A stretch of DNA of 64,000 bases from Candidatus Acidiferrales bacterium. Lineage in GTDB: Bacteria; Chloroflexota; Dormibacteria; Aeolococcales; Aeolococcaceae. This document shows, piece after piece, positions 2,291-63,535 of the stretch. Made by a program: the position numbers and the translations under genes. The notes under the pieces were generated by a model. That model was not told the origin of the DNA. It saw only the letters and a program-made list of their open reading frames with translations, and searched no databases. The DNA lies in contig DATMRA010000130.1 in NCBI GenBank assembly GCA_035566535.1, forward strand, positions 170 to 64,169. The letters run 5' to 3'. Positions within the stretch are counted from its first letter, which is position 1. Every line of letters starts with the position of its first letter.

Positions 2291-3004
2291 ATGGCCAGAA
2301 CCAGGCGTCGTAGAGGCGGCACAGTGAGAGCCGTCAAACGCACCGTGAGGCGCGTGAAGTCGACGGCGAGTCGTCGTGCTCCCGCCGCCGGTGGCGATCT
2401 CGTGAAATCGGTGCTGCGCGCACTACCCATCAGAGAGCTCGAGCGGCGGCTTGCAGGCCTCGAGAGGATCGTTGCAAGGCTCGAAGCCAACGTCAGAGGC
2501 GGCGTGCGTCGCGCAGCGGGCGGTACCCGCAAGCGCGCCACCGCCAAGCGCACCACCGCGAAGCGCACGGGTGTAAAGCGCACCACGCGGCGCCGGACCG
2601 GCACCGCGAAGCGCGCGGCAGCCAAGCGCACCACTCGCAAGAGCACCGCACGGCGCACCACCGCGAAGCGCACGACCGCTCGTCGCACCACCGCGAAGCG
2701 GGCGACGGCAAAGCGGACAACCCGCCGCGCGGGCGCGAAGCGCACGACTGCCAAGCGCACCGCCAAGCGCACCGCCAAGCGCACCACCGCCAAGCGGACC
2801 ACCGCCAAGCGCGCAGGCGCTAAGCGGACGACAGCCAAGCGCGTCGGGACCCGCAAGGTCGCCGCACGCAAGCCGGCGGCACGCAAGCCTGCGGCGCGCA
2901 AGCCTGCGGCGCGCAAGCCCGCAGTGCGTCGCGGCGGACGCCGCAAGGCGGCAGCCCCCGCCGTGGCCGCGGCATCGTCGCCGATGCCCAGCCCCGCGAG
3001 CTGA
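2291..3004 (+). CDS. Highly basic histone-H1-like / AlgP-like repeat protein (paralogue 1), with tandem TAKRT and AARKP pentapeptide repeats
   Basis: GGAGG ribosome-binding site 7 nt upstream of the ATG at 2291. Architecture is an N-terminal Arg-rich segment, a short coiled-coil (LPIRELERRLAGLERIVARLEANV), then roughly 25 (T/A)AKRT repeats and a 4x AARKP tail. A paralogue lies at 56905-57579. The ORF-track start at 2162 is probably too far upstream. Confidence 0.6.
   Translation: MARTRRRRGGTVRAVKRTVRRVKSTASRRAPAAGGDLVKSVLRALPIRELERRLAGLERIVARLEANVRGGVRRAAGGTRKRATAKRTTAKRTGVKRTTRRRTGTAKRAAAKRTTRKSTARRTTAKRTTARRTTAKRATAKRTTRRAGAKRTTAKRTAKRTAKRTTAKRTTAKRAGAKRTTAKRVGTRKVAARKPAARKPAARKPAARKPAVRRGGRRKAAAPAVAAASSPMPSPAS
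2525..2850 (+). repeat. Imperfect 15-bp (and 12-bp) coding tandem repeat (gccaagcgcacc(acc)) encoding TAKRT units
   Basis: Visible periodicity in the DNA, cleanest at 2750-2850. Lies within the CDS at 2291-3004. Confidence 0.8.
2860..2925 (+). repeat. About 4x 15-bp coding tandem repeat (gcgcgcaagcctgcg) encoding AARKP units
   Basis: Direct repeats visible in the sequence, within the CDS at 2291-3004. Confidence 0.8.
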
Positions 3005-7502: not shown

Positions 7503-8543
7503 GTGCCATCCTCTCTCGCGACGGTCGATACGGTGGCCAGTCAGGAAGTGCCGCCGTCGCTGACCGGACGATTTTTGAACCGCCGCACCATCCTGTCGTT
7601 GTTGGTGGCTGCGTTGATCGTCGGTCTCGCGATATGGCGCGCCCCGATCAACTGGGCTGATGCCTGGAACAAGATCCGGCACGCAGATCCGCTCCTGTAC
7701 ATCGCTGCCCTGCTCATCTATTACGCGTCGTTCGGCGTGCGCGCCGTGCGCTGGCGGGTGCTCCTGAAGAACACCGGCGAAGACCGGCCGACTCGGGCTC
7801 TCATCGGTCCGCTTGTCACATCGTTTTTCGTGAACTGCGTGGTGCCCGCCAAGATGGGCGACCTGTATCGCGCGTACCAGGCCCGAGCTCGGCTCGCGAT
7901 CTCGGGTAGCAAAGCGCTCGGAACCATCATCGCCGAGCGCCTGCTGGACCTGTGCGTGCTCATGGCCCTGCTGCTGGCCGCCGGTGCCGTGGTATTCCAC
8001 CGTAAGGCCCCGGGTGTGCTGATTCCGTACGTGATCGTCGGCACACTGGTGTGTCTCGCCGGTGTCGGCGTGATTCTCACAATGCGCGCGGGAAGAGGTC
8101 GTCGATTCCTGCGTCTGCTGCCGGAAGCCATCTTCCATCGCTACGAGTCGTTCCGGGTCGGCACCGTGCACTCCTTCGGCCGCTTCCCCACGCTCGTATC
8201 ACTCACGGTGTTGGTCTGGTTTTTCGAGGCCGCGCGCCTGGGATTCGTGGTCTTCGCGCTGAATGACGGCAGCTTGCTCGGGCCCTCGCAGTTCCTGCTC
8301 ATCGCCCTGGTGGCCGCTCTCCTCACCACCGTTCCCTTCCTACCAGGTGGCCTCGGACTCGTCGAAGCGGGAATGGTCGGCGTCCTGATCGCAGTCGGCG
8401 GCGTGAGCCAGCAGGTGGCCGTCTCCATCGCCTTGCTCGACCGCAGCATCAGCTACGGCAGCCTGGTCGTGTTCGGCTTCATCGTTTTCACCGTCACACA
8501 CGTCACCGCTCCTCGCGCGCGCCCCGCTGCCGCGCAGGGGTGA
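7503..8543 (+). CDS. Integral membrane protein of the lysylphosphatidylglycerol-synthase-TM-region / UPF0104 flippase-like family
   Basis: 346 aa with about 8 TM segments. Has the family's characteristic charged motif in the first cytoplasmic loop (FGVRAVRWRVLL). The stop overlaps the next gene's start. Confidence 0.6.
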   Translation: MPSSLATVDTVASQEVPPSLTGRFLNRRTILSLLVAALIVGLAIWRAPINWADAWNKIRHADPLLYIAALLIYYASFGVRAVRWRVLLKNTGEDRPTRALIGPLVTSFFVNCVVPAKMGDLYRAYQARARLAISGSKALGTIIAERLLDLCVLMALLLAAGAVVFHRKAPGVLIPYVIVGTLVCLAGVGVILTMRAGRGRRFLRLLPEAIFHRYESFRVGTVHSFGRFPTLVSLTVLVWFFEAARLGFVVFALNDGSLLGPSQFLLIALVAALLTTVPFLPGGLGLVEAGMVGVLIAVGGVSQQVAVSIALLDRSISYGSLVVFGFIVFTVTHVTAPRARPAAAQG

Positions 8544-9925: not shown

Positions 9926-9962
9926 GGACGGATTCCGCTCGCCATGGAGCGGGGCTCCCGGG

Positions 9963-55690: not shown

Positions 55691-56849
55691 CCACACCGAT
55701 CGGCGCGGCGCAGAAACCCACGTAGTCGATCGGCTCTGTGATGCTGGGATTCTCTCCGCAGACCGGACATTGCGGGTCACGCGGGATGCGGAACTCGCGA
55801 AACTTCATCGCCAGCGCATCGATGTGCAGCAGGCGCCCGGTGAGCAGATCGCCCGCGCCTGTGATCAGCTTGATCACCTCGGCGGCCTGGAGCGTGCCGA
55901 CAATACCGGGTAGCACTCCCAGCACTCCAGCCTCGGCGCAGGATGGCGCTTCTTCCGGGGGCGGTGGCGACGGATACCGGCATCGATAGCACGGCGACTG
56001 GAACGGCACTATCGTCGTGAGCTGGCCCTCGAAACGGAAGATGCCACCGTCGATGAGTGGCTTCTTCGTGAAGATGGCGACGTCGTTGGCCAGGTAGCGC
56101 GTGGGGAAGTTGTCGCAGCCGTTGACGATGACGTCGTACTGCGCAAAGAGCTCACGGGCATTCTCACCACTGAGCATCTCGTTGTGCTCGACGACGCGCA
56201 CGTCGCTGTTCAGTGCTTGCAACGCGATCCTCGCCGACTCCGTCTTGCGCATTCCGATGCGGTCCTCGGTGTGGAGAATCTGCCGCTGCAGATTGCTGAG
56301 GTCGACGGTGTCGAAATCGACAAAGCCGATCGTGCCAACACCGGCGGCGGCGAGGTAGAGCGCCGTCGGGCTGCCGAGGCCGCCCGCCCCGATGATCAAC
56401 ACCCTCGCATCGAGCAGCTTCCGCTGCCCTTCTTCGCCGATCTCGGGGATGAGCAGGTGGCGGCTGTAGCGTTGCTTCTGCTGCGTCGTCAGCGCCTTGG
56501 GGACCACGAAGTCGTAGCCCGCCTGCTTCCATGCGCCGAAGCCGCCGCCCAGTGATTCGACGTTGGTGTAGCCCAGCTCACGTATGGCGCGGGCCGCGAG
56601 GAGCGATCGCACTCCGGCTGCGCAGTAGAGCGTGATCGGCGTCTCCCGGTCGGGTACCAGATCTTCGATGCGAGTCTCGATGAAGCCCTTGCTCAGATGT
56701 ACGGCGCCCGGTACGTGCCCTTCCTCGAACTCGTCGCGCTCACGCACGTCGATGACCACGCGGCCGGGTTCTGCCCGCATCTGCTGAGGCGTCACCTCGG
56801 GGATGACGCGGCGTGCTTCGTCGAGGAGATCGCGGGATGACCTGGCCAT
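55656..56849 (-). CDS. Rhodanese-ThiF/MoeB (E1-like) fusion sulfurtransferase / adenylyltransferase, MoeZ-like but with the rhodanese domain N-terminal
   Basis: N-terminal rhodanese (VIDVRERDEF...YCAAGVRS) followed by a ThiF domain (GAGGLGSP, CxxC...CxxC). Its 3' end overlaps the convergent Trm112-like gene by about 35 nt. Confidence 0.8.
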   Translation of the reverse strand: MARSSRDLLDEARRVIPEVTPQQMRAEPGRVVIDVRERDEFEEGHVPGAVHLSKGFIETRIEDLVPDRETPITLYCAAGVRSLLAARAIRELGYTNVESLGGGFGAWKQAGYDFVVPKALTTQQKQRYSRHLLIPEIGEEGQRKLLDARVLIIGAGGLGSPTALYLAAAGVGTIGFVDFDTVDLSNLQRQILHTEDRIGMRKTESARIALQALNSDVRVVEHNEMLSGENARELFAQYDVIVNGCDNFPTRYLANDVAIFTKKPLIDGGIFRFEGQLTTIVPFQSPCYRCRYPSPPPPEEAPSCAEAGVLGVLPGIVGTLQAAEVIKLITGAGDLLTGRLLHIDALAMKFREFRIPRDPQCPVCGENPSITEPIDYVGFCAAPIGVATEAVGAARPA

Positions 56850-56904
56850 GAACCAAGTCTACCCAAAAACCCGACCAGCTAAGTCTGGATTCCGGAGCCC
56901 AGGA

Positions 56905-57579
56905 TCAGAGTGGGGCAGGCTGCGGCGCTGCGGACGTGACCTTCGCCGCCGGCGTGGCCCGGCGCCGAGCGCGGGTGCCGGAGCCTTTCGCCGTTCGCTT
57001 TGCGGTTGTCGCGCGCGGCCGCGCCGTGCGCTTCGCGGTCGTGCGCTTCGCGGTCGTGCGCTTCGCGGTCGTGCGTTTCGCGGTTGTGCGCTTCGCGGTC
57101 GTGCGTTTCGCGGTTGTACGCTTCACAGCCGTCGCGCGCTTGGTCGCGGGTTTGCGGCCGGCGGTCTTGCGTGCCGCAGCTGGAGCGGCTCGCTTCCGAG
57201 CCACTGTCGTGCGCTTGGCTCCTGCTGGCGCCGCCCGCTTGCGTGGGGCGGCGCGCTTGCGCGCGGTTGTGCGCCGCGTCGTGCGCGACGCAGACGTTGC
57301 GGTCACGCGCGCCACCGCTCGTCCGGCGATTCGACTGGTCGCCGCAGACAATTGCGTCTCCGCTGCCTGCAGTCTGATCGCGAGCTTCTCGGCGTTCTTC
57401 GTCGCGGTGGCCGCCTTTTGGCTGGCTTTCCGATGCGCGCTTCGCGTCTGGTTCACGAGCTTGCGCAGTGCTTTGAGCTCACTTGCCTGCTTTTTCTGCA
57501 CCTTCTTGGGCAGCGCTCGTTTGGCCGCAGCGGCGGAGACGGCCACCGTCCGCCGTGCCGGTCTGGTTTTCGCCCGCAT
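56905..57579 (-). CDS. Highly basic histone-H1-like / AlgP-like repeat protein (paralogue 2), with TAKRT pentapeptide repeats
   Basis: 224 aa with the same architecture as the 2291-3004 protein: basic N-terminus, a coiled-coil (ELKALRKLV...AEKLAIRLQAAETQLSAA), then repeats of AKRTT. Lies 45 nt downstream of ppx on the same strand. Confidence 0.6.
   Translation of the reverse strand: MRAKTRPARRTVAVSAAAAKRALPKKVQKKQASELKALRKLVNQTRSAHRKASQKAATATKNAEKLAIRLQAAETQLSAATSRIAGRAVARVTATSASRTTRRTTARKRAAPRKRAAPAGAKRTTVARKRAAPAAARKTAGRKPATKRATAVKRTTAKRTTAKRTTAKRTTAKRTTAKRTTAKRTARPRATTAKRTAKGSGTRARRRATPAAKVTSAAPQPAPL
57026..57127 (-). repeat. About 6.7x 15-bp coding tandem repeat (gtgcgcttcgcggtc on plus strand) encoding AKRTT units
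   Basis: Directly visible periodicity, within the CDS at 56905-57579. Confidence 0.85.
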
Positions 57580-57624
57580 CGCTGAACCCCCATATATGAA
57601 TTACGTGCTGCTGTCTACCACACG

Positions 57625-59256
57625 TCAGAGCCCGACTGCAATGCCGGCGGCACCGAGTCTGTCGCCGCTCCCGCCCTCGAGCACCAGCTCTCTCCCGAAC
57701 ACACCACGAAATCGCGCAGCGAGTTCGCCAGGCATCCAGTCATGTGGCATCGGCACCGTCAGGACGACGTCTTTGCGGTCGTCCTGCCGGGCCACCGAGA
57801 CGGCGGCGCCTCGGGGCATGCGCCGCTCGACTTCGTCCGCCAGGGCCAGCAATACCGCCGCTCGGTTGAGACCGCGACTGTCGGCCGCGTCCCACAGCAT
57901 CGAGTACGGGTCGAAGCTCGCCCGTCCTTTGCCGGCGCGCACGATGAGTGACGCCATCATCCCGATGCTGCGGTGCGAGAACCCGTGCAGGTCAGCGGAG
58001 ACAACAATCTCCGCGGCGTGGTCCCAGCGACGGTAATAGTCCACGCTGCGGCCCACGTCCAGGATGGTCGCCGCTTGTTCGAGCGCGTCGCGCAGCTCCT
58101 CGGAGGCTCCAGGCAGCATGACGTCCCAGAGGGCGCCGGCGACTCGCGCGCGCCGGCGCGCGCGATCACCATCCCACGTGGTGAAACGCGAGGCGATGGC
58201 AGCGATGGACGCGCGCCGGACAGCGGCAGGCGAGGGCATGTATCGCGCGAATTCCTCGTAGACCACGCCTTCACGCAGCCCCTGCCCCGAGACAGTGACG
58301 TCACCTGCGCCGAGGCTGTCAATGACCGTCTGCACCACGAGGACGCCGCCCACAATCGAGTCGGCACGGTCAGCGGAAAGGCCCGGCAGAGCAGCTCGCC
58401 GAACCAGCCGTCGCGCAACGAGTCGGGAGCCGATGTCGCGCAGCGCTTTCCGTCCCAGCGTATAGCCGTGCAGCCGTGGAATCGGGTAGGTGATGGTGGC
58501 TCGATGCATCTTCGCCAGGTTGCGAATGGTGCCTCCGGTGCCAACCATGCGCTCGTCGTCGCGCATCGGTATGACGTCGGCGCTGCGCAGCGTCTTGAGG
58601 ACATGGTCCTGCAATGCCGCTATCTCGTTTTGCTTGGGTGGGTCGCTGCCAAGAAAGACATCGGTCATCCGCAATGCACCGAGCGGCAGCGTCCAGCTTT
58701 CCTGGGCCCTCCGATTGCGAAAGTGCGCAATCTCCAGGCTTCCGCCGCCGACGTCGACGAGCATGCCGTGGTCGATCGGGAGCCCGTTGACCGCTCCGCT
58801 GAAGGCGAGGCGAGCTTCTTCGTCCCCGTCGATGACGCGGATGTTCAACCCGGTCTCGCGCCGCAGCCGTCCCACGAACTGGTCGCTGTTGACAGCCTCT
58901 CTCACCGCAGCGGTCGCCAGGGCAATGGTGCGCCTCGCTCCCGACCCGGCCGCGACCGCCATGAAGTCGAACAGCGCGGCCAGCGTGCGCTCCTCCGCGG
59001 CGGGGCTGAGGCTGCCCGACTTGTCGATGTCGCTCATCAACCGCAGTGACGTCCGCGCCTCGGAAAGGATTTCCAAGTGGCCGTTGGCGGTCACGCGCAC
59101 CACGATGATGCGGCCCGAGTTGGAGCCGATGTCGATGACTGCCAGCGGCTGAGTGGGCAAGCCAGCTCCTGATGGCGGCGCTTCTGTCGACCAGTATACG
59201 AGGGGCCCCGGAGCGGGCAGCGCATGCCGCGTCGCACCTCTTGACCACCTCGACAC
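57625..59256 (-). CDS. ppx: Exopolyphosphatase / guanosine pentaphosphate phosphohydrolase (Ppx/GppA)
   Basis: ASKHA fold N-terminus (AVIDIGSNSGRI, DVGGGS) and a C-terminal HD-like domain. Confidence 0.85.
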   Translation of the reverse strand: MSRWSRGATRHALPAPGPLVYWSTEAPPSGAGLPTQPLAVIDIGSNSGRIIVVRVTANGHLEILSEARTSLRLMSDIDKSGSLSPAAEERTLAALFDFMAVAAGSGARRTIALATAAVREAVNSDQFVGRLRRETGLNIRVIDGDEEARLAFSGAVNGLPIDHGMLVDVGGGSLEIAHFRNRRAQESWTLPLGALRMTDVFLGSDPPKQNEIAALQDHVLKTLRSADVIPMRDDERMVGTGGTIRNLAKMHRATITYPIPRLHGYTLGRKALRDIGSRLVARRLVRRAALPGLSADRADSIVGGVLVVQTVIDSLGAGDVTVSGQGLREGVVYEEFARYMPSPAAVRRASIAAIASRFTTWDGDRARRRARVAGALWDVMLPGASEELRDALEQAATILDVGRSVDYYRRWDHAAEIVVSADLHGFSHRSIGMMASLIVRAGKGRASFDPYSMLWDAADSRGLNRAAVLLALADEVERRMPRGAAVSVARQDDRKDVVLTVPMPHDWMPGELAARFRGVFGRELVLEGGSGDRLGAAGIAVGL

Positions 59257-59508
59257 GCCTTGTTAACCATTTGGAAAACTCCTCACGGTGTCGATACGGA
59301 AGCGCGAGGCAAGCGCATATTGCCGCCTTGAGCGGGTTATCCTGCCGGGGTGGTGCAGCACGATGACTGTCGTTTTCTCTATCGCCAGAACAATTCGGCT
59401 CGCTGACCGTCCGTGATCCAGCAGCCACGAAACCGAGCCGCAGAGCGTAGCCGGACGCCGACCAACGGACGGACGAACGACGCCCCGCAACTGGCGCTCG
59501 AGGCCGTG

Positions 59509-61581
59509 ATGCCACTCGAGCAATCCGCGATCGTGGCCGACGAGTTCGGCCAGCTGATCAACCGCGAGCTCAGCTGGCTCGACTTCAACCGGCGCGTCCT
59601 GGCGCTCGCCGAGGACGCGAGCACGCCGCTCTTGGAGCGGGCCAAGTTTCTGGCCATCTTCAGCCGCAATCTCGACGAGTTCTTCCAAGTTCGAGTTGGC
59701 GGCCTGAAGCAACAGGTTGTGCTTGGCGTCACCCAGCGTTCGCCGGATGGTATGACCCCGCGCGAGCAGCTCCGCGCCATCCGCGCCGGGGTGAGCGAAA
59801 TGGTGGCGCGCCATTCACGCTGCTTCAACGACGACGTTGCGGTCCGCTTTGAGCGCGCCGGTATCCAGCTGGTGGGATGGAATTCGCTCGAGGAGCCCGA
59901 CCGCTCGCATCTCTCCGAGGTGTTCGCGAGCACGATCTTCCCGGTCCTGACCCCACTCGCGGTGGATCCCGCGCATCCGTTTCCGTACATCTCGAATCTG
60001 TCGCTCAACCTGGCTGTCGTGGTGCGCGATGTGGATGCGCAGATGTCGCACGTGGCGCGCATCAAGGTGCCGCCGCTGCTGCATCGCTTCGTGCCGCTGC
60101 CCGACGGCGAGCGCTTCATCGCCATCGAGCAGGTGATCGCGGCACACCTGACCGAGCTCTTCCCGCAGATGCGCATCGTGTCGCATCACTCCTTCCGGCT
60201 CACACGCAACGCCGACTACGAGCTCGAGGCGGAGGAGGGCGAGGATCTGCTCGAAGCAGTGCAGACGATTCTCGAGCAGCGCCGCCGTTCACCCCTTGCG
60301 GTGCGTCTCGAGATCGAAGCTGGGATGACGGATGAGGTGCGCGAGCTACTGGTGCGTGAGCTGGATCTCGAAGCCGACGATGTGTACCCGATCACCGCTC
60401 CGCTCGACCTCGTGGGGCTCTGGGAGCTGCATGAGCTCGACAGGGCCGACCTCAAGTACGGGTCGTGGACGCCGGTGACCCCTCCCGCATTCACGTCGAC
60501 CCGCGGCGAGGGCCCGCCGGACATCTTCCGGGTGCTGCGCTCGCAGGGCGTGCTCGTCCAGCACCCATACGAGTCGTTCGAGGCGTCGGTCGAGGCCTTC
60601 GTCGAACAGGCTGCCGCGGATTCACGGGTGCTCGCGATAAAGCAGACGCTGTATCGCACCAGCGGCATCGCATCACCGATCATTCACGCCCTCATCCGCG
60701 CGGCACAGAGTGGCAAGCAGGTGGTCGCCCTCATCGAGCTCACCGCACGATTCGATGAACAAGCGAACATCGAGTGGGCGCAAATGCTCGAGGACGCGGG
60801 CGTGCACGTCGTGTACGGAATCGTCGGTCTGAAAACCCACGCCAAGCTGACGCTGGTTGTGCGCCAGGAGGACGCCGGCATTCGCCGGTACTGTCACCTG
60901 GGGACGGGTAACTACAACCCGGATACCGCCCGCATCTACGAGGACATCGGCCTGCTCACCGACGACCAGGACTTCGGCGCGGACCTCTCCGACCTGTTCA
61001 ATCTGCTCACCGGGTACAGCCGGCAACGCGACTACCGCCAGCTCCTTGTCGCGCCGCTGACCATGCGTGGTTCATTGCATGAGCTCATCGACCGCGAGGC
61101 CCACCCTCAGGGGCTCATCTCCATCAAGGTGAACAGCCTCGTCGACAGCGACGTCATACGCGCGCTCTATCGCGCATCGCAGGCGGGAGCTGACGTCGAC
61201 CTGCTGGTCCGCGGCATTTGTTGCCTGCGTCCGGGAGTGCCCGGCTTGTCGGAACGCATCCGGGTGCGCTCCATCGTGGGGCGATACCTTGAGCACTCGC
61301 GCATCTATCGCTTCGGCGATTCCCCGGATGCCACGTACTACGCAGGCTCGGCCGACCTGATGCCGCGCAACCTCGATCGCCGGTTGGAGGTTCTCTTTCC
61401 TGTGCTCTCAGCTCCGCTGCGGAGTCGTGTCGACGAGATTCTCGACACGACGTGGTCCGATGATGTGCTCGCCTGGGAGCTGAAGGGCGACCACTGGAGC
61501 AAGGTGCCCACCGTTCACGGCGTCAACGCGCACGAACGCCTGCAGCAGCTGGCTCTCGACCGCGCGCACTCCGTCGGGTGA
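59509..61581 (+). CDS. ppk1: Polyphosphate kinase 1
   Basis: N-terminal NRELSWLDFNRRVL; two PLD-like HKD-type domains; full-length PPK1 similarity. Start is ATG 59509, or possibly GTG 59413. Confidence 0.9.
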   Translation: MPLEQSAIVADEFGQLINRELSWLDFNRRVLALAEDASTPLLERAKFLAIFSRNLDEFFQVRVGGLKQQVVLGVTQRSPDGMTPREQLRAIRAGVSEMVARHSRCFNDDVAVRFERAGIQLVGWNSLEEPDRSHLSEVFASTIFPVLTPLAVDPAHPFPYISNLSLNLAVVVRDVDAQMSHVARIKVPPLLHRFVPLPDGERFIAIEQVIAAHLTELFPQMRIVSHHSFRLTRNADYELEAEEGEDLLEAVQTILEQRRRSPLAVRLEIEAGMTDEVRELLVRELDLEADDVYPITAPLDLVGLWELHELDRADLKYGSWTPVTPPAFTSTRGEGPPDIFRVLRSQGVLVQHPYESFEASVEAFVEQAAADSRVLAIKQTLYRTSGIASPIIHALIRAAQSGKQVVALIELTARFDEQANIEWAQMLEDAGVHVVYGIVGLKTHAKLTLVVRQEDAGIRRYCHLGTGNYNPDTARIYEDIGLLTDDQDFGADLSDLFNLLTGYSRQRDYRQLLVAPLTMRGSLHELIDREAHPQGLISIKVNSLVDSDVIRALYRASQAGADVDLLVRGICCLRPGVPGLSERIRVRSIVGRYLEHSRIYRFGDSPDATYYAGSADLMPRNLDRRLEVLFPVLSAPLRSRVDEILDTTWSDDVLAWELKGDHWSKVPTVHGVNAHERLQQLALDRAHSVG

Positions 61582-63071
61582 GCCGGGCTCGCCTGCGGCG
61601 GTGGACCCTCGCCGCGGGTCCCCGTTACCGGGCGCCCGATTTGGCGTCAATCGAGGGCGTGGCAGCGGCCGGCACCGAGACGCGTTCCGCCACCGTCACG
61701 TACTACGACACGGAAGACCTCCGGCTCGCGCGATGGGGCTGCCGCCTGTGCCACGGCGGTGATGGCTGGACGCTGATGCTCGGTCGCGACGGGGCCAGTG
61801 GGCCGCAGCTTGTTGATCGCGAAATGCACTTTGCGGGCACGGCCGCCGGTCCCCCGGACGCTGCGGTCGACCTGGTGACGGGCCTCACGCGGGGTGCGCC
61901 ACTTCATCGCGTGCTGCGCACGCGCAGCGAGACCGTGCACACATCGCTGGCAACGCTCGACGGGGACGCCCTCGCCGACATCGTCGATGAGCGCGTCACG
62001 GTCTTGGAAGGGCGCCGCATCACCTCACGATTTCGCGATATCCACCTCACCGCGCTGCGCGGCGGCAACCACGGACATGAGCACCTGATCGACGCCGCAC
62101 TCGCGCTCGTCCGTGATGCGGGGGCGGCGGTCGAGGATCCGGCGCAGAGCTCCGCGCGAGCGCTCGGCCCTGCGGCGCTGCATGAGGCCGACGTGGTGGC
62201 ACCGGCGATGACGCGAAGGTCGTCCGCCGCCGACGCGATCCGCAGCGCAATCGCCGGCTCTGTGGCGCGGTTGATCCTGTACGACGCAGCCGTGCGAATC
62301 GGCCAGGACCCCGAAGGCGTTCACCAGGCGCGCGTGGCGACCCGCCGCCTCCGCTCGGACCTGAGGACGTTCCGAACGCTCCTCGACGAGGCCTGGACGC
62401 AGCGGCTGCGCGACGACCTGCACGGCCTGGCCGATCAACTCGGCAAGGTGCGCGACGCGGATGTCCTCCTTGGGAGGCTCTCTGAAGCGGTCGCCAGCCT
62501 CCCTGAGCGCGACCGCCCGGGTGCGGCTCCGGCACTGGCAGCCCTGTCGCGATCTCGGGACGAGGCGCGCGCCGAACTCCTCCACGTCCTCAGGTCGCCG
62601 GGGTACACCGCGCTGCTCGACGAGCTCGTCGCGGCCGCGGCTGATCCGCACACGACTCCGGAGGCCGCCGGCAACGCGGCCGATCTCCTGCCGCCCCTGG
62701 CGGCCACCCCCTGGCGCCGGCTGCGCAAACGGGTGAGCTCACTCGGCGACACCCCCCCTGACGCGGACCTTCACCAGGTACGAATCCTCGCCAAGCGGGC
62801 CAGGTATGCAGCCGAAGCCGTGGCCCCGGTCGCGAGGCGGTCGGTCGCGGCGTTCGCCCGAGCCGTCGCAGCCGTTCAGGACCAGCTGGGCGAGCATCAC
62901 GACGCGGTCGTCGCTGAGGCCTGGCTGCACGGGCCGGGCGCGGCGGGGGCTGACGCATTCGCTCTCGGCGAGCTCGTTGGCCTGGAACGGGCGCGAGCCA
63001 GCCGCGCCCGGGCCGGCTGGCCGCGGTTTTGGAAGGCAGCCAAGTCGGCACACCCCAGCAAGTGGGCGTGA
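61578..63071 (+). CDS. CYTH (triphosphate tunnel metalloenzyme) + CHAD domain protein
   Basis: N-terminal CYTH-like beta-barrel region, then CHAD helical repeats with conserved His/Arg (RVATRRLRS..., HQVRILAKRARYAAE, HHDAVV). GTGA overlap with ppk1. Confidence 0.7.
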   Translation: MSRARLRRWTLAAGPRYRAPDLASIEGVAAAGTETRSATVTYYDTEDLRLARWGCRLCHGGDGWTLMLGRDGASGPQLVDREMHFAGTAAGPPDAAVDLVTGLTRGAPLHRVLRTRSETVHTSLATLDGDALADIVDERVTVLEGRRITSRFRDIHLTALRGGNHGHEHLIDAALALVRDAGAAVEDPAQSSARALGPAALHEADVVAPAMTRRSSAADAIRSAIAGSVARLILYDAAVRIGQDPEGVHQARVATRRLRSDLRTFRTLLDEAWTQRLRDDLHGLADQLGKVRDADVLLGRLSEAVASLPERDRPGAAPALAALSRSRDEARAELLHVLRSPGYTALLDELVAAAADPHTTPEAAGNAADLLPPLAATPWRRLRKRVSSLGDTPPDADLHQVRILAKRARYAAEAVAPVARRSVAAFARAVAAVQDQLGEHHDAVVAEAWLHGPGAAGADAFALGELVGLERARASRARAGWPRFWKAAKSAHPSKWA

Positions 63072-63535
63072 GCAGTGTCTACCTCGTGCGCCACGCAGAC
63101 GCCGGCAGCCGGCAGACCTGGCGCGGGCCTGACGATCGACGCCCGCTGAGCGACGACGGCTGGCGCCAGGCCCGGGCGCTCGTCGATCTCCTGGCCCCGG
63201 ATCGTTTCGACCGGGTCGTCTCGAGCCCATCCCTGCGCTGTGTCCAGACCGTGGATCCTCTGGCCGAAGCCAGGCGGGTCGCAGTGGAGGAGGACTCGCG
63301 GCTCCTGGAGGGTCATGACCCTCGGGACACCGCGAGCTGGCTCCTGGCTGAGGCATTGCTGAGATCGTTGGTGGCATGCACCCACGGCGACCTCGTCCCG
63401 GCTGTGCTCACGGCCCTGGAGGCTGCCGGCGCCTCGGTTCCCGTCGAGCGGCGGTGGCCGAAAGCGTCCACGTGGGTTCTGGAATTCGAGGGCGGCCGCT
63501 GGGCGAGCGTGCGCTACCTGCCGCCCCCGGGCTGA
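63068..63535 (+). CDS. Histidine phosphatase superfamily protein (SixA-like phosphohistidine phosphatase)
   Basis: RHG motif (YLVRHADAG) and size of about 155 aa. GTGA overlap with the upstream CYTH-CHAD gene. Confidence 0.7.
   Translation: MSSVYLVRHADAGSRQTWRGPDDRRPLSDDGWRQARALVDLLAPDRFDRVVSSPSLRCVQTVDPLAEARRVAVEEDSRLLEGHDPRDTASWLLAEALLRSLVACTHGDLVPAVLTALEAAGASVPVERRWPKASTWVLEFEGGRWASVRYLPPPG

Follow-up and report, generated by a model that had tools for sequence, protein, structure and literature searches.

A polycationic protein gene beside exopolyphosphatase

The DNA analysed here, hereafter the window, is a 64,000-nucleotide (nt) stretch from an assembly labelled Candidatus Acidiferrales bacterium (GCA_035566535.1, contig DATMRA010000130.1, positions 170 to 64,169; GTDB class Dormibacteria), with a G+C content of about 67%. 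The gene under study, X, lies at 56905-57579 on the minus strand. On the basis of its open reading frame (ORF), composition, charge and orthologues, it encodes a polycationic protein of 224 amino acids (aa). Together, the sequence comparisons and the predicted structure suggest that X is a polyphosphate-associated polycation, built from a conserved helix and a disordered repeat tail and encoded within a cluster of polyphosphate genes.

Immediately upstream of X and on the same strand is ppx (57625-59256), which encodes an exopolyphosphatase of 543 aa (Pfam Ppx-GppA, 1e-57, plus domain III; TIGR03706, 279 bits). The polyphosphate kinase 1 gene ppk1 is divergent from it (59413-61581, plus strand; all four PPK1 domains; TIGR03705, 782 bits) and is followed on the plus strand by genes for a CYTH-CHAD protein (61578-63071; CHAD, 1.8e-57) and a histidine phosphatase (63029-63535; His_Phos_1, 1.9e-19; NF052459, MutT1). 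The N-terminal half of the CHAD protein falls below the Pfam CYTH threshold. The protein was nevertheless accepted as CYTH-CHAD because it is 46% identical, end to end, to the neighbour of an Actinomycetes X homologue in which Pfam recognizes both CYTH and CHAD. The histidine phosphatase matches NF052459 at profile positions 132-287 of 292, which is the C-terminal half of that model. The ppk1 and CHAD genes overlap by 4 nt (61578-61581), and the CHAD and histidine phosphatase ORFs by 43 nt as listed (63029-63071), consistent with a tightly coupled operon. On the other side of X, a moeB-like ThiF/rhodanese gene follows in the same direction after 55 nt. The initial annotation had placed X 45 nt downstream of ppx, next to ppk1, a CHAD protein and a histidine phosphatase; both the exact distance and the identity of each neighbour are confirmed, the latter by Pfam and NCBIfam matches and the CYTH-CHAD alignment.

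The spacer between ppx and X (57580-57624, minus strand) contains two elements of interest. A GGGGG ribosome-binding site at 57587-57591 lies 7 nt 5' of the ATG of X, which begins exactly 45 nt past the TGA stop of ppx. Just past this stop is the motif TGTGGTAGACAGCAGCAC (57605-57622, minus strand), which is near-invariant as TGTGnTAGACAnCAGCAC in four orthologous loci. The window holds a single copy of the motif, where chance alone would give 0.02. This element could act as an internal promoter, its TAGACA resembling a -35 box, or as a regulator site for X. A promoter and terminator scan of 56500-59700, the ppx-X gap included, found nothing, and an Rfam scan of the whole window was likewise empty. 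Because the 45-nt gap contains no terminator-like site, X is probably co-transcribed with ppx.

X is a genuine gene with a three-part product

The X protein has a predicted isoelectric point of ~12 and consists of 27% Ala, 30% Lys+Arg, 16.5% Thr and 4.9% Pro, with no Asp and only three Glu. Its net charge of +65 is distributed over three parts delimited by alignment: a basic N-terminal arm (residues 1-24, net +7; 57508-57579), a long α-helix or coiled-coil domain (residues ~25-95, net +13; 57295-57507) and a disordered polycationic tail (residues 96-224, net +45; 56908-57294), all on the minus strand. The arm differs in length among family members.

Several observations show that X is a genuine gene under purifying selection. 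An identical protein is called as a gene on an independent Joint Genome Institute (JGI) metagenome contig with the gene order of the window. Start codon, frame and ribosome-binding site are all kept in orthologues at 92%, 79% and 60% identity. Within the 95 N-terminal codons, synonymous and non-synonymous changes stand at 8:6 and 23:15 in the two closest orthologues; as there are ~3 non-synonymous sites per synonymous site, this corresponds to a ratio of non-synonymous to synonymous rates (dN/dS) of ~0.2. All insertions and deletions (indels) among the relatives are in frame.

The alternative, that the ORF is a spurious product of high G+C and a DNA repeat, has one source of support: long shadow ORFs on the other strand, and in different frames, run across the X repeat (56803-57585 and 56936-58036, plus strand). 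The second of these continues antisense into ppx, which counts against the alternative. The same evidence that establishes X, namely conserved initiation signals, in-frame indels and an N-terminal domain conserved at the protein level down to ~35-45% identity with synonymous changes in excess, effectively refutes this alternative. The shadow ORFs, of 260 and 366 aa, are artefacts of high G+C and the repeat, and they could mislead gene callers.

The conserved helix defines a small family

AlphaFold2, supplied with an alignment of nine sequences, models residues 25-105 of X as a single unbroken helix. The predicted local distance difference test score (pLDDT) exceeds 90 for residues ~30-85 and reaches 94-98 for residues 31-80. 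Across seven family members, the a/d heptad positions (35, 38, 42, 45, 49, 52 ... 84) are occupied by Leu, Val, Ala, Met or Ile in an unbroken pattern. This corresponds to the Ala/Leu core typical of coiled coils and suggests that the helix oligomerises.

This helix of ~60 residues is the sole conserved part of the family. Its members share the signature KALRKLVxQTRxAHxK...L..RL..AE..L, in which L38, R39, K40, V42 and L66 are invariant, and their tails diverge fully between branches. AKRTT pentapeptides make up the tails of X itself, of its counterparts at loci L010, L012 and L013, and of the pair P0008/P0003. The tail of P0011 instead carries TKSPVR and PTRASG motifs, that of P0012 carries ARKT motifs, and that of the L011 protein is rich in Thr, Arg and Gly.

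A search with full-length X was dominated by the low-complexity AKRTT tails of unrelated proteins and yielded P0003, P0008 and P0002. When 1.84 billion representative proteins were searched exhaustively with a HMMER profile, nine matches were obtained at E <= 1e-3. About six or seven of these are convincing members of the helix family: P0009, P0010 (2e-18), P0011 (2.6e-8), P0012 (2.9e-8), P0014 (1.2e-6) and P0015 (2.3e-6), with P0016 doubtful. P0008 and P0003, both first found by a word-indexed search, match the family profile at 4e-38. The genome scan for further relatives used an alignment of four sequences.

Comparison with known families places the helix apart. When all family members were scanned, no Pfam or NCBIfam model, phasin included, matched the helix at E <= 1, and a profile search of the PDB returned coiled-coil noise only. 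The CHAD domain model (PF05235) has no match in X, and Bac_DNA_binding (PF00216) has none in X or any other member. The tail of X reaches 18.4 bits with HC2 (PF07382; gathering threshold 40) and X scores 15.7 bits with the histone H1-like model NF038053 (cut-off 80), in both cases under the threshold. In these comparisons, the helix of X defines a very small, undescribed family, here called the KALRKLV-helix family, characterized by a conserved heptad helix followed by a basic low-complexity tail. X has both.

The repeat tail is disordered and changes in length

In the AlphaFold2 model, the tail of X has pLDDT values of mostly 43-54, rising to 65 in the first block and 63 in the last. It ends in a short Pro/Ala-rich tip (...AAPQPAPL). 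Part of the tail is encoded by a 15-bp tandem repeat specifying (AKRTT)n at 57025-57124 on the minus strand, for which Tandem Repeats Finder (TRF) reports 6.7 copies with 90% matches and a score of 165. Tandem repeats of 15 bp had been described at this locus and at 2291-3004 (plus strand), where a separate polycationic protein is encoded; TRF recovers arrays at both, the second (2530-2842) being degenerate. No AKRTT-type repeat is encoded elsewhere in the window. The proposed count of 15-25 repeats is too high for X, which has six exact AKRTT units, seven uninterrupted pentapeptides or ~12 units by a loose pattern. A KPAA array is absent from X.

Comparison across assemblies bears out the expectation that the repeat number is variable. 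P0008 and P0003, which come from separate metagenomes and have the same flanking genes, are encoded by DNA that is 98% identical, and their single difference in length is one 15-bp unit, GCGAAGCGCACGACG. Between the window and L012, the ppx genes align without gaps at 95.2% identity. For X the identity is 91%, and the two copies differ by two in-frame indels, of 15 bp and 42 bp, each located in the tail. The uninterrupted AKRTT runs comprise seven units in the window, eight in L012, nine in L013 and six in L010. Expansion and contraction of the repeat is thus supported by comparison between relatives.

X adjoins a polyphosphate gene in every readable context

Gene order in the relatives falls into two kinds of arrangement. 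The window, the JGI contig, L012 and the Candidatus Dormibacteraeota metagenome-assembled genome (MAG) at L010 share one layout: ppx is divergent from ppk1 and is followed by X and the moeB-like gene, with the CHAD and histidine phosphatase genes beyond ppk1. At L013, the end of ppx is recognizable 5' of X, as in the window. In the P0011 lineage, where the helix is ~41% identical to that of X and the tail is different, the X-type gene begins 13 nt after a gene of the ppx type; over its last 97 residues, the product of that gene shares 51% identity with the C-terminus of the window Ppx (E = 4e-26).

The second arrangement involves the CYTH-CHAD gene. X-type genes are divergent from it in P0008/P0003, where ~125 nt separate the two, in P0010, and in the Actinomycetes MAG at L011. 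The remaining neighbours in these three lineages are unlike those of the window (NUDIX, FtsH, DUF3048, chorismate synthase and PF04185 phosphoesterases), and at L001 neither ppx nor ppk1 lies within 10 kb. A polyphosphate gene, either ppx or that of CYTH-CHAD, is therefore the direct neighbour of X in every readable context. Synteny of X with polyphosphate genes in relatives had been set beforehand as a check on the initial annotation, and it holds. This tally leaves out P0012, P0014 and P0015, whose contig context was unrecoverable.

One further protein occupies the same position. P0002, found through its AKRTT tail only, combines a helical N-terminus with about 10 AKRTT units and sits 1 nt after a ppx 41% identical to that of the window (L018, 1952-3986), with ppk1 divergent from ppx and a convergent gene of the ROK family alongside. 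ROK proteins include actinobacterial polyphosphate glucokinases. The N-terminus of P0002 has no significant match to the X family profile (hhalign probability 9.7%), and the protein is apparently a non-homologous, positional analogue of X. Including this case, the spacing from ppx to the X-type gene ranges from 1 to 51 nt. As a control, AKRTT-tailed proteins with other N-termini, namely P0001 and the family of the 2291-3004 protein, have no polyphosphate neighbours.

Proposed function and alternatives

The favoured interpretation, to which we assign a probability of about 0.55, is that X is a polyphosphate-associated polycation functionally analogous, and not demonstrably homologous, to AlgP of Pseudomonas. 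From the gene neighbourhood, we infer that X binds polyphosphate and localises to granules. In the proposed mechanism, the helix would oligomerise as a coiled coil, possibly docking on the CHAD protein or Ppx. The resulting oligomer would be a multivalent particle whose cationic tails could bind the polyphosphate made by PPK1 and probably DNA as well. Such a particle may form a coat on granules or condense them, and may link them to the nucleoid. Gain or loss of 15-bp units would, through the length of the tail, adjust how many binding sites are present and hence the valency.

The alternatives differ mainly in the partner assigned to the tail or the helix. X could be a general histone-like nucleoid protein of the Hc2 or H1-like type that compacts DNA, its adjacency to polyphosphate genes reflecting only shared regulation during starvation. 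The tail does weakly match both Pfam HC2 and the NCBIfam histone H1-like DNA-binding protein, comparable tails occur on the HU proteins P0005 and P0007, and AlgP itself binds DNA and is found on the nucleoid when polyphosphate is absent (PMC11894788). These matches are, however, far under their thresholds, and the AKRTT protein of the same genome that scores higher with HC2, that of 2291-3004, has no linkage to polyphosphate. In addition, the adjacency of X to ppx or CHAD survives complete reshuffling of the other flanking genes, which makes co-regulation alone hard to invoke. A purely nucleoid role is on balance unlikely. A function in binding RNA or ribosomes, for example as a translation activator unrelated to polyphosphate, has a precedent in PhaF, whose tail resembles that of AlgP and which is reported, in the accessible part of PMC12818456, to be an RNA-binding translation activator; extreme basicity is also typical of ribosome-associated proteins. 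As no ribosomal or RNA-metabolism genes are consistently adjacent and the neighbourhood signal is ppx or CHAD, this explanation is highly improbable.

A different possibility retains polyphosphate and changes the role. As an accessory or regulatory subunit, X would bind Ppx or CYTH-CHAD through its helix and use the tail to present, shield or sequester polyphosphate, thereby controlling turnover rather than granule position. The only conserved part of X is a helix of the protein-interaction type, the neighbouring gene encodes one of exactly two proteins, either Ppx or CYTH-CHAD, and the spacing of X from ppx is tight, all of which would be expected of such a subunit. This proposal overlaps largely with that of a granule-associated polycation, and both may hold together; as a separate explanation it is rather unlikely. 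A more specific and quite speculative extension, for which the odds are poor, is that X founds a class of "polyphosphate phasins". Here, the coiled coil would dock on CYTH-CHAD or Ppx at the granule surface, and the AKRTT tail, tunable by slippage, would determine the valency of coacervation of polyphosphate with DNA, hence granule size and nucleoid attachment. The regularly spaced threonines would form a Ser/Thr-kinase switch for the release of polyphosphate or DNA. If this were true, the position of P0002 after ppx would mean that the module has been recruited into polyphosphate operons repeatedly.

Several points weigh against a granule-associated polycation as the function of X. The case is built from genes and a predicted structure, and a polycation of +65 binds any polyanion, whether DNA, RNA or polyphosphate, so that its chemistry cannot discriminate between partners. 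Homology of X to AlgP or PhaF is not demonstrable, the helix having no phasin or other family match. The moeB-like gene downstream of X has no polyphosphate role, and in the Actinomycetes branch the CHAD gene is divergent from X, so that they do not share an operon. Finally, because the family is tiny and three members lack context, the linkage claim is based on ~3 independent arrangements plus one analogue.

Comparison with AlgP and other granule and nucleoid proteins

In AlgP, a helical N-terminal domain that is predicted to form an antiparallel coiled coil precedes a disordered KPAA tail, and a short tip ends the protein. AlgP is found on polyphosphate granules, whose even spacing requires the tail; removal of the tail gives fewer, larger and mis-spaced granules (PMC9239181, PMC11894788). 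The number of AlgP repeats varies clonally, according to Deretic and Konyecsni (1990) as cited in PMC11894788.

The analogy to AlgP drawn in the initial annotation fits the architecture of X. Like AlgP (AlgR3 of P. aeruginosa), X proceeds from a helical N-terminal domain to a polycationic repeat tail that is disordered and ends in a short, atypical tip, and its repeat number is variable, between relatives in X and between strains in AlgP. The differences are also clear. No sequence relationship to the N-terminus of AlgP is detectable when the X helix is compared with family models. The repeat of X is the pentapeptide AKRTT, which contains both Arg and Lys and is rich in Thr, with little Pro, whereas that of AlgP is the tetrapeptide KPAA. 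X has 224 aa and AlgP 352, and X occurs in Dormibacterota and Actinomycetes, AlgP in Gammaproteobacteria. AlgP is tied to polyphosphate by experiment and X by gene neighbourhood only. X is encoded within a ppx/ppk1/CHAD cluster, and the literature found makes no such statement for algP, which we take to lie outside the polyphosphate gene cluster.

PhaF, which serves the polyhydroxyalkanoate (PHA) granules of Pseudomonas, resembles X in layout: PhaF has a granule-binding helical N-terminus with an oligomerisation segment and a DNA-binding H1-like tail, and its gene lies within the cluster for the storage polymer that it organises (PMC11894788). Unlike X, it serves a hydrophobic polymer; X has no match to the Pfam phasin model, and its helix is basic rather than amphipathic-hydrophobic. 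X is set apart from proteins of the AlgP/PhaF kind by its apparently unrelated conserved helix, its Arg/Lys/Thr pentapeptide tail and, above all, its location in a polyphosphate cluster.

X also shares features with three further groups of proteins. Like chlamydial Hc2 and the PF07382 and NF038053 families, it has pentapeptide-type repeats rich in Lys, Arg, Ala and Thr, but repeat composition is all that defines these families, the KALRKLV helix is missing from them and no linkage to polyphosphate has been reported for them. CHAD domains are described as specific polyphosphate-binding modules (PMC6537752). X resembles the CHAD granule proteins (e.g. Ralstonia PptA and CYTH-CHAD proteins) in being basic, helical and tied to polyphosphate; without a CHAD domain, it would be a putative partner of this group rather than a member. 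HupB/MDP1 of mycobacteria is an actinobacterial nucleoid protein in which HU is joined to a Lys/Ala/Pro repeat tail, and X lacks the HU fold. In M. tuberculosis, hupB (Rv2986c) presumably lies by mutT1 (Rv2985) and ppk1 (Rv2984), an arrangement of which only the assignment of MutT1 to Rv2985 was confirmed. The literature search found nothing that links such proteins to ppx/ppk operons and nothing on polyphosphate biology in Dormibacterota.

To our knowledge, very few organisers of bacterial polyphosphate granules have been described, namely CHAD proteins, AlgP and Hfq. AlgP was discovered by proteomics. Here, the AlgP-type design of a helix with a disordered polycationic repeat tail is found inside ppx/ppk1/CHAD clusters of distant, mostly uncultured soil phyla. 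Its presence in clusters of both Dormibacterota and Actinomycetes suggests that organising polyphosphate by means of polycations is a general solution with more than one origin. Members of the X family are few, and their sources are uncultured soil bacteria. The family nevertheless offers a short conserved segment, the helix, that is testable for a specific partner such as CHAD or Ppx, and a natural series of tail lengths for valency control of polyphosphate condensates.

Other AKRTT-tailed proteins and further features of the loci

The gene at 2291-3004 on the plus strand, identified from its ORF, TRF and HC2 matches, encodes a protein of 237 aa with a net charge of +79 and both AKRTT and ARKPA repeats. 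By TRF, its DNA contains a degenerate 15-bp array (2530-2842; 21.5 copies, 62% matches) and, after it, a KPAAR array (2852-2922). The protein has eight exact AKRTT units, four uninterrupted runs of two, ~17 units by a loose pattern and four ARKPA units. It scores 66.7 bits with HC2, over the gathering threshold, and 45.4 bits with NF038053, under the cut-off.

This protein and X had been described as paralogues with a shared N-terminus, a proposal that the comparisons do not sustain. BLASTP aligns the pair in the repeats only, and the N-terminus of the 2291-3004 protein does not match the X family profile (hhalign probability 0.7%). It belongs instead to a separate N-terminal family (P0018-P0031) with the sequence MARTRRRRGG..AVKRTVRRV..GGDLVKAVQxLVKALPVxELEKRLAGLEKTVARLE, followed by AKR[A/T]T repeats. 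At L017 and in the window, the neighbourhood of this family comprises glutamate dehydrogenase (gdh), threonine aldolase and a GGDEF protein, without polyphosphate genes; the members themselves (at L017, 8001-8384) are always flanked by glutamate dehydrogenase on one side and threonine aldolase on the other.

Tails of the AKRTT type are also carried by P0001, P0004, P0006, which is an amphi-Trp protein, and two HU proteins, P0005 and P0007, that match both PF00216 and HC2. As it is found on several unrelated N-terminal domains, the AKRTT repeat appears to be a reusable polycationic module. Threonine in every repeat is consequently not the special mark it had been taken for, given these unrelated N-termini and a 2291-3004 protein that passes the HC2 threshold. 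Two AT-skew peaks in the window, at 16-18 kb and 38-40 kb, were considered as further basic-repeat genes and rejected; they correspond to membrane-protein genes on the minus strand.

The loci with a divergent CHAD-X pair have additional features. Phosphate-scavenging genes surround the pair (L004, 2144-3424; L011, 4710-6083 and 6140-7816; L001, 3511-4704 and 14234-15895), encoding PF04185 phosphoesterases, one with a weak twin-arginine translocation (TAT) signal, a PstS-like PBP_like_2 protein and a type I phosphodiesterase. Their gene content suggests that the Actinomycetes-type loci are a phosphate-starvation neighbourhood. The divergent intergenic region contains a conserved CTnnTGTACAA(C)ACG element ~60 nt 5' of X (L001, ~9940-9955, with equivalents in L004 and L011), loosely like the TAGACA core of the Dormibacterota spacer motif. 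In the Actinomycetes locus L001, a stand-alone NUDIX gene (7925-8386) adjoins that of CYTH-CHAD. Taken with the histidine phosphatase of the window, it resembles a split MutT1 beside polyphosphate genes.

The 15-bp arrays may also affect how these proteins are recorded. Many database entries of the 2291-3004 family are 95-134 aa long and end in repeats, the tail of P0019 is frame-shifted, and P0009 (98 aa) of the X family ends inside its repeats. Proteins that end in this way suggest that assemblies or gene calls often break at the 15-bp arrays.

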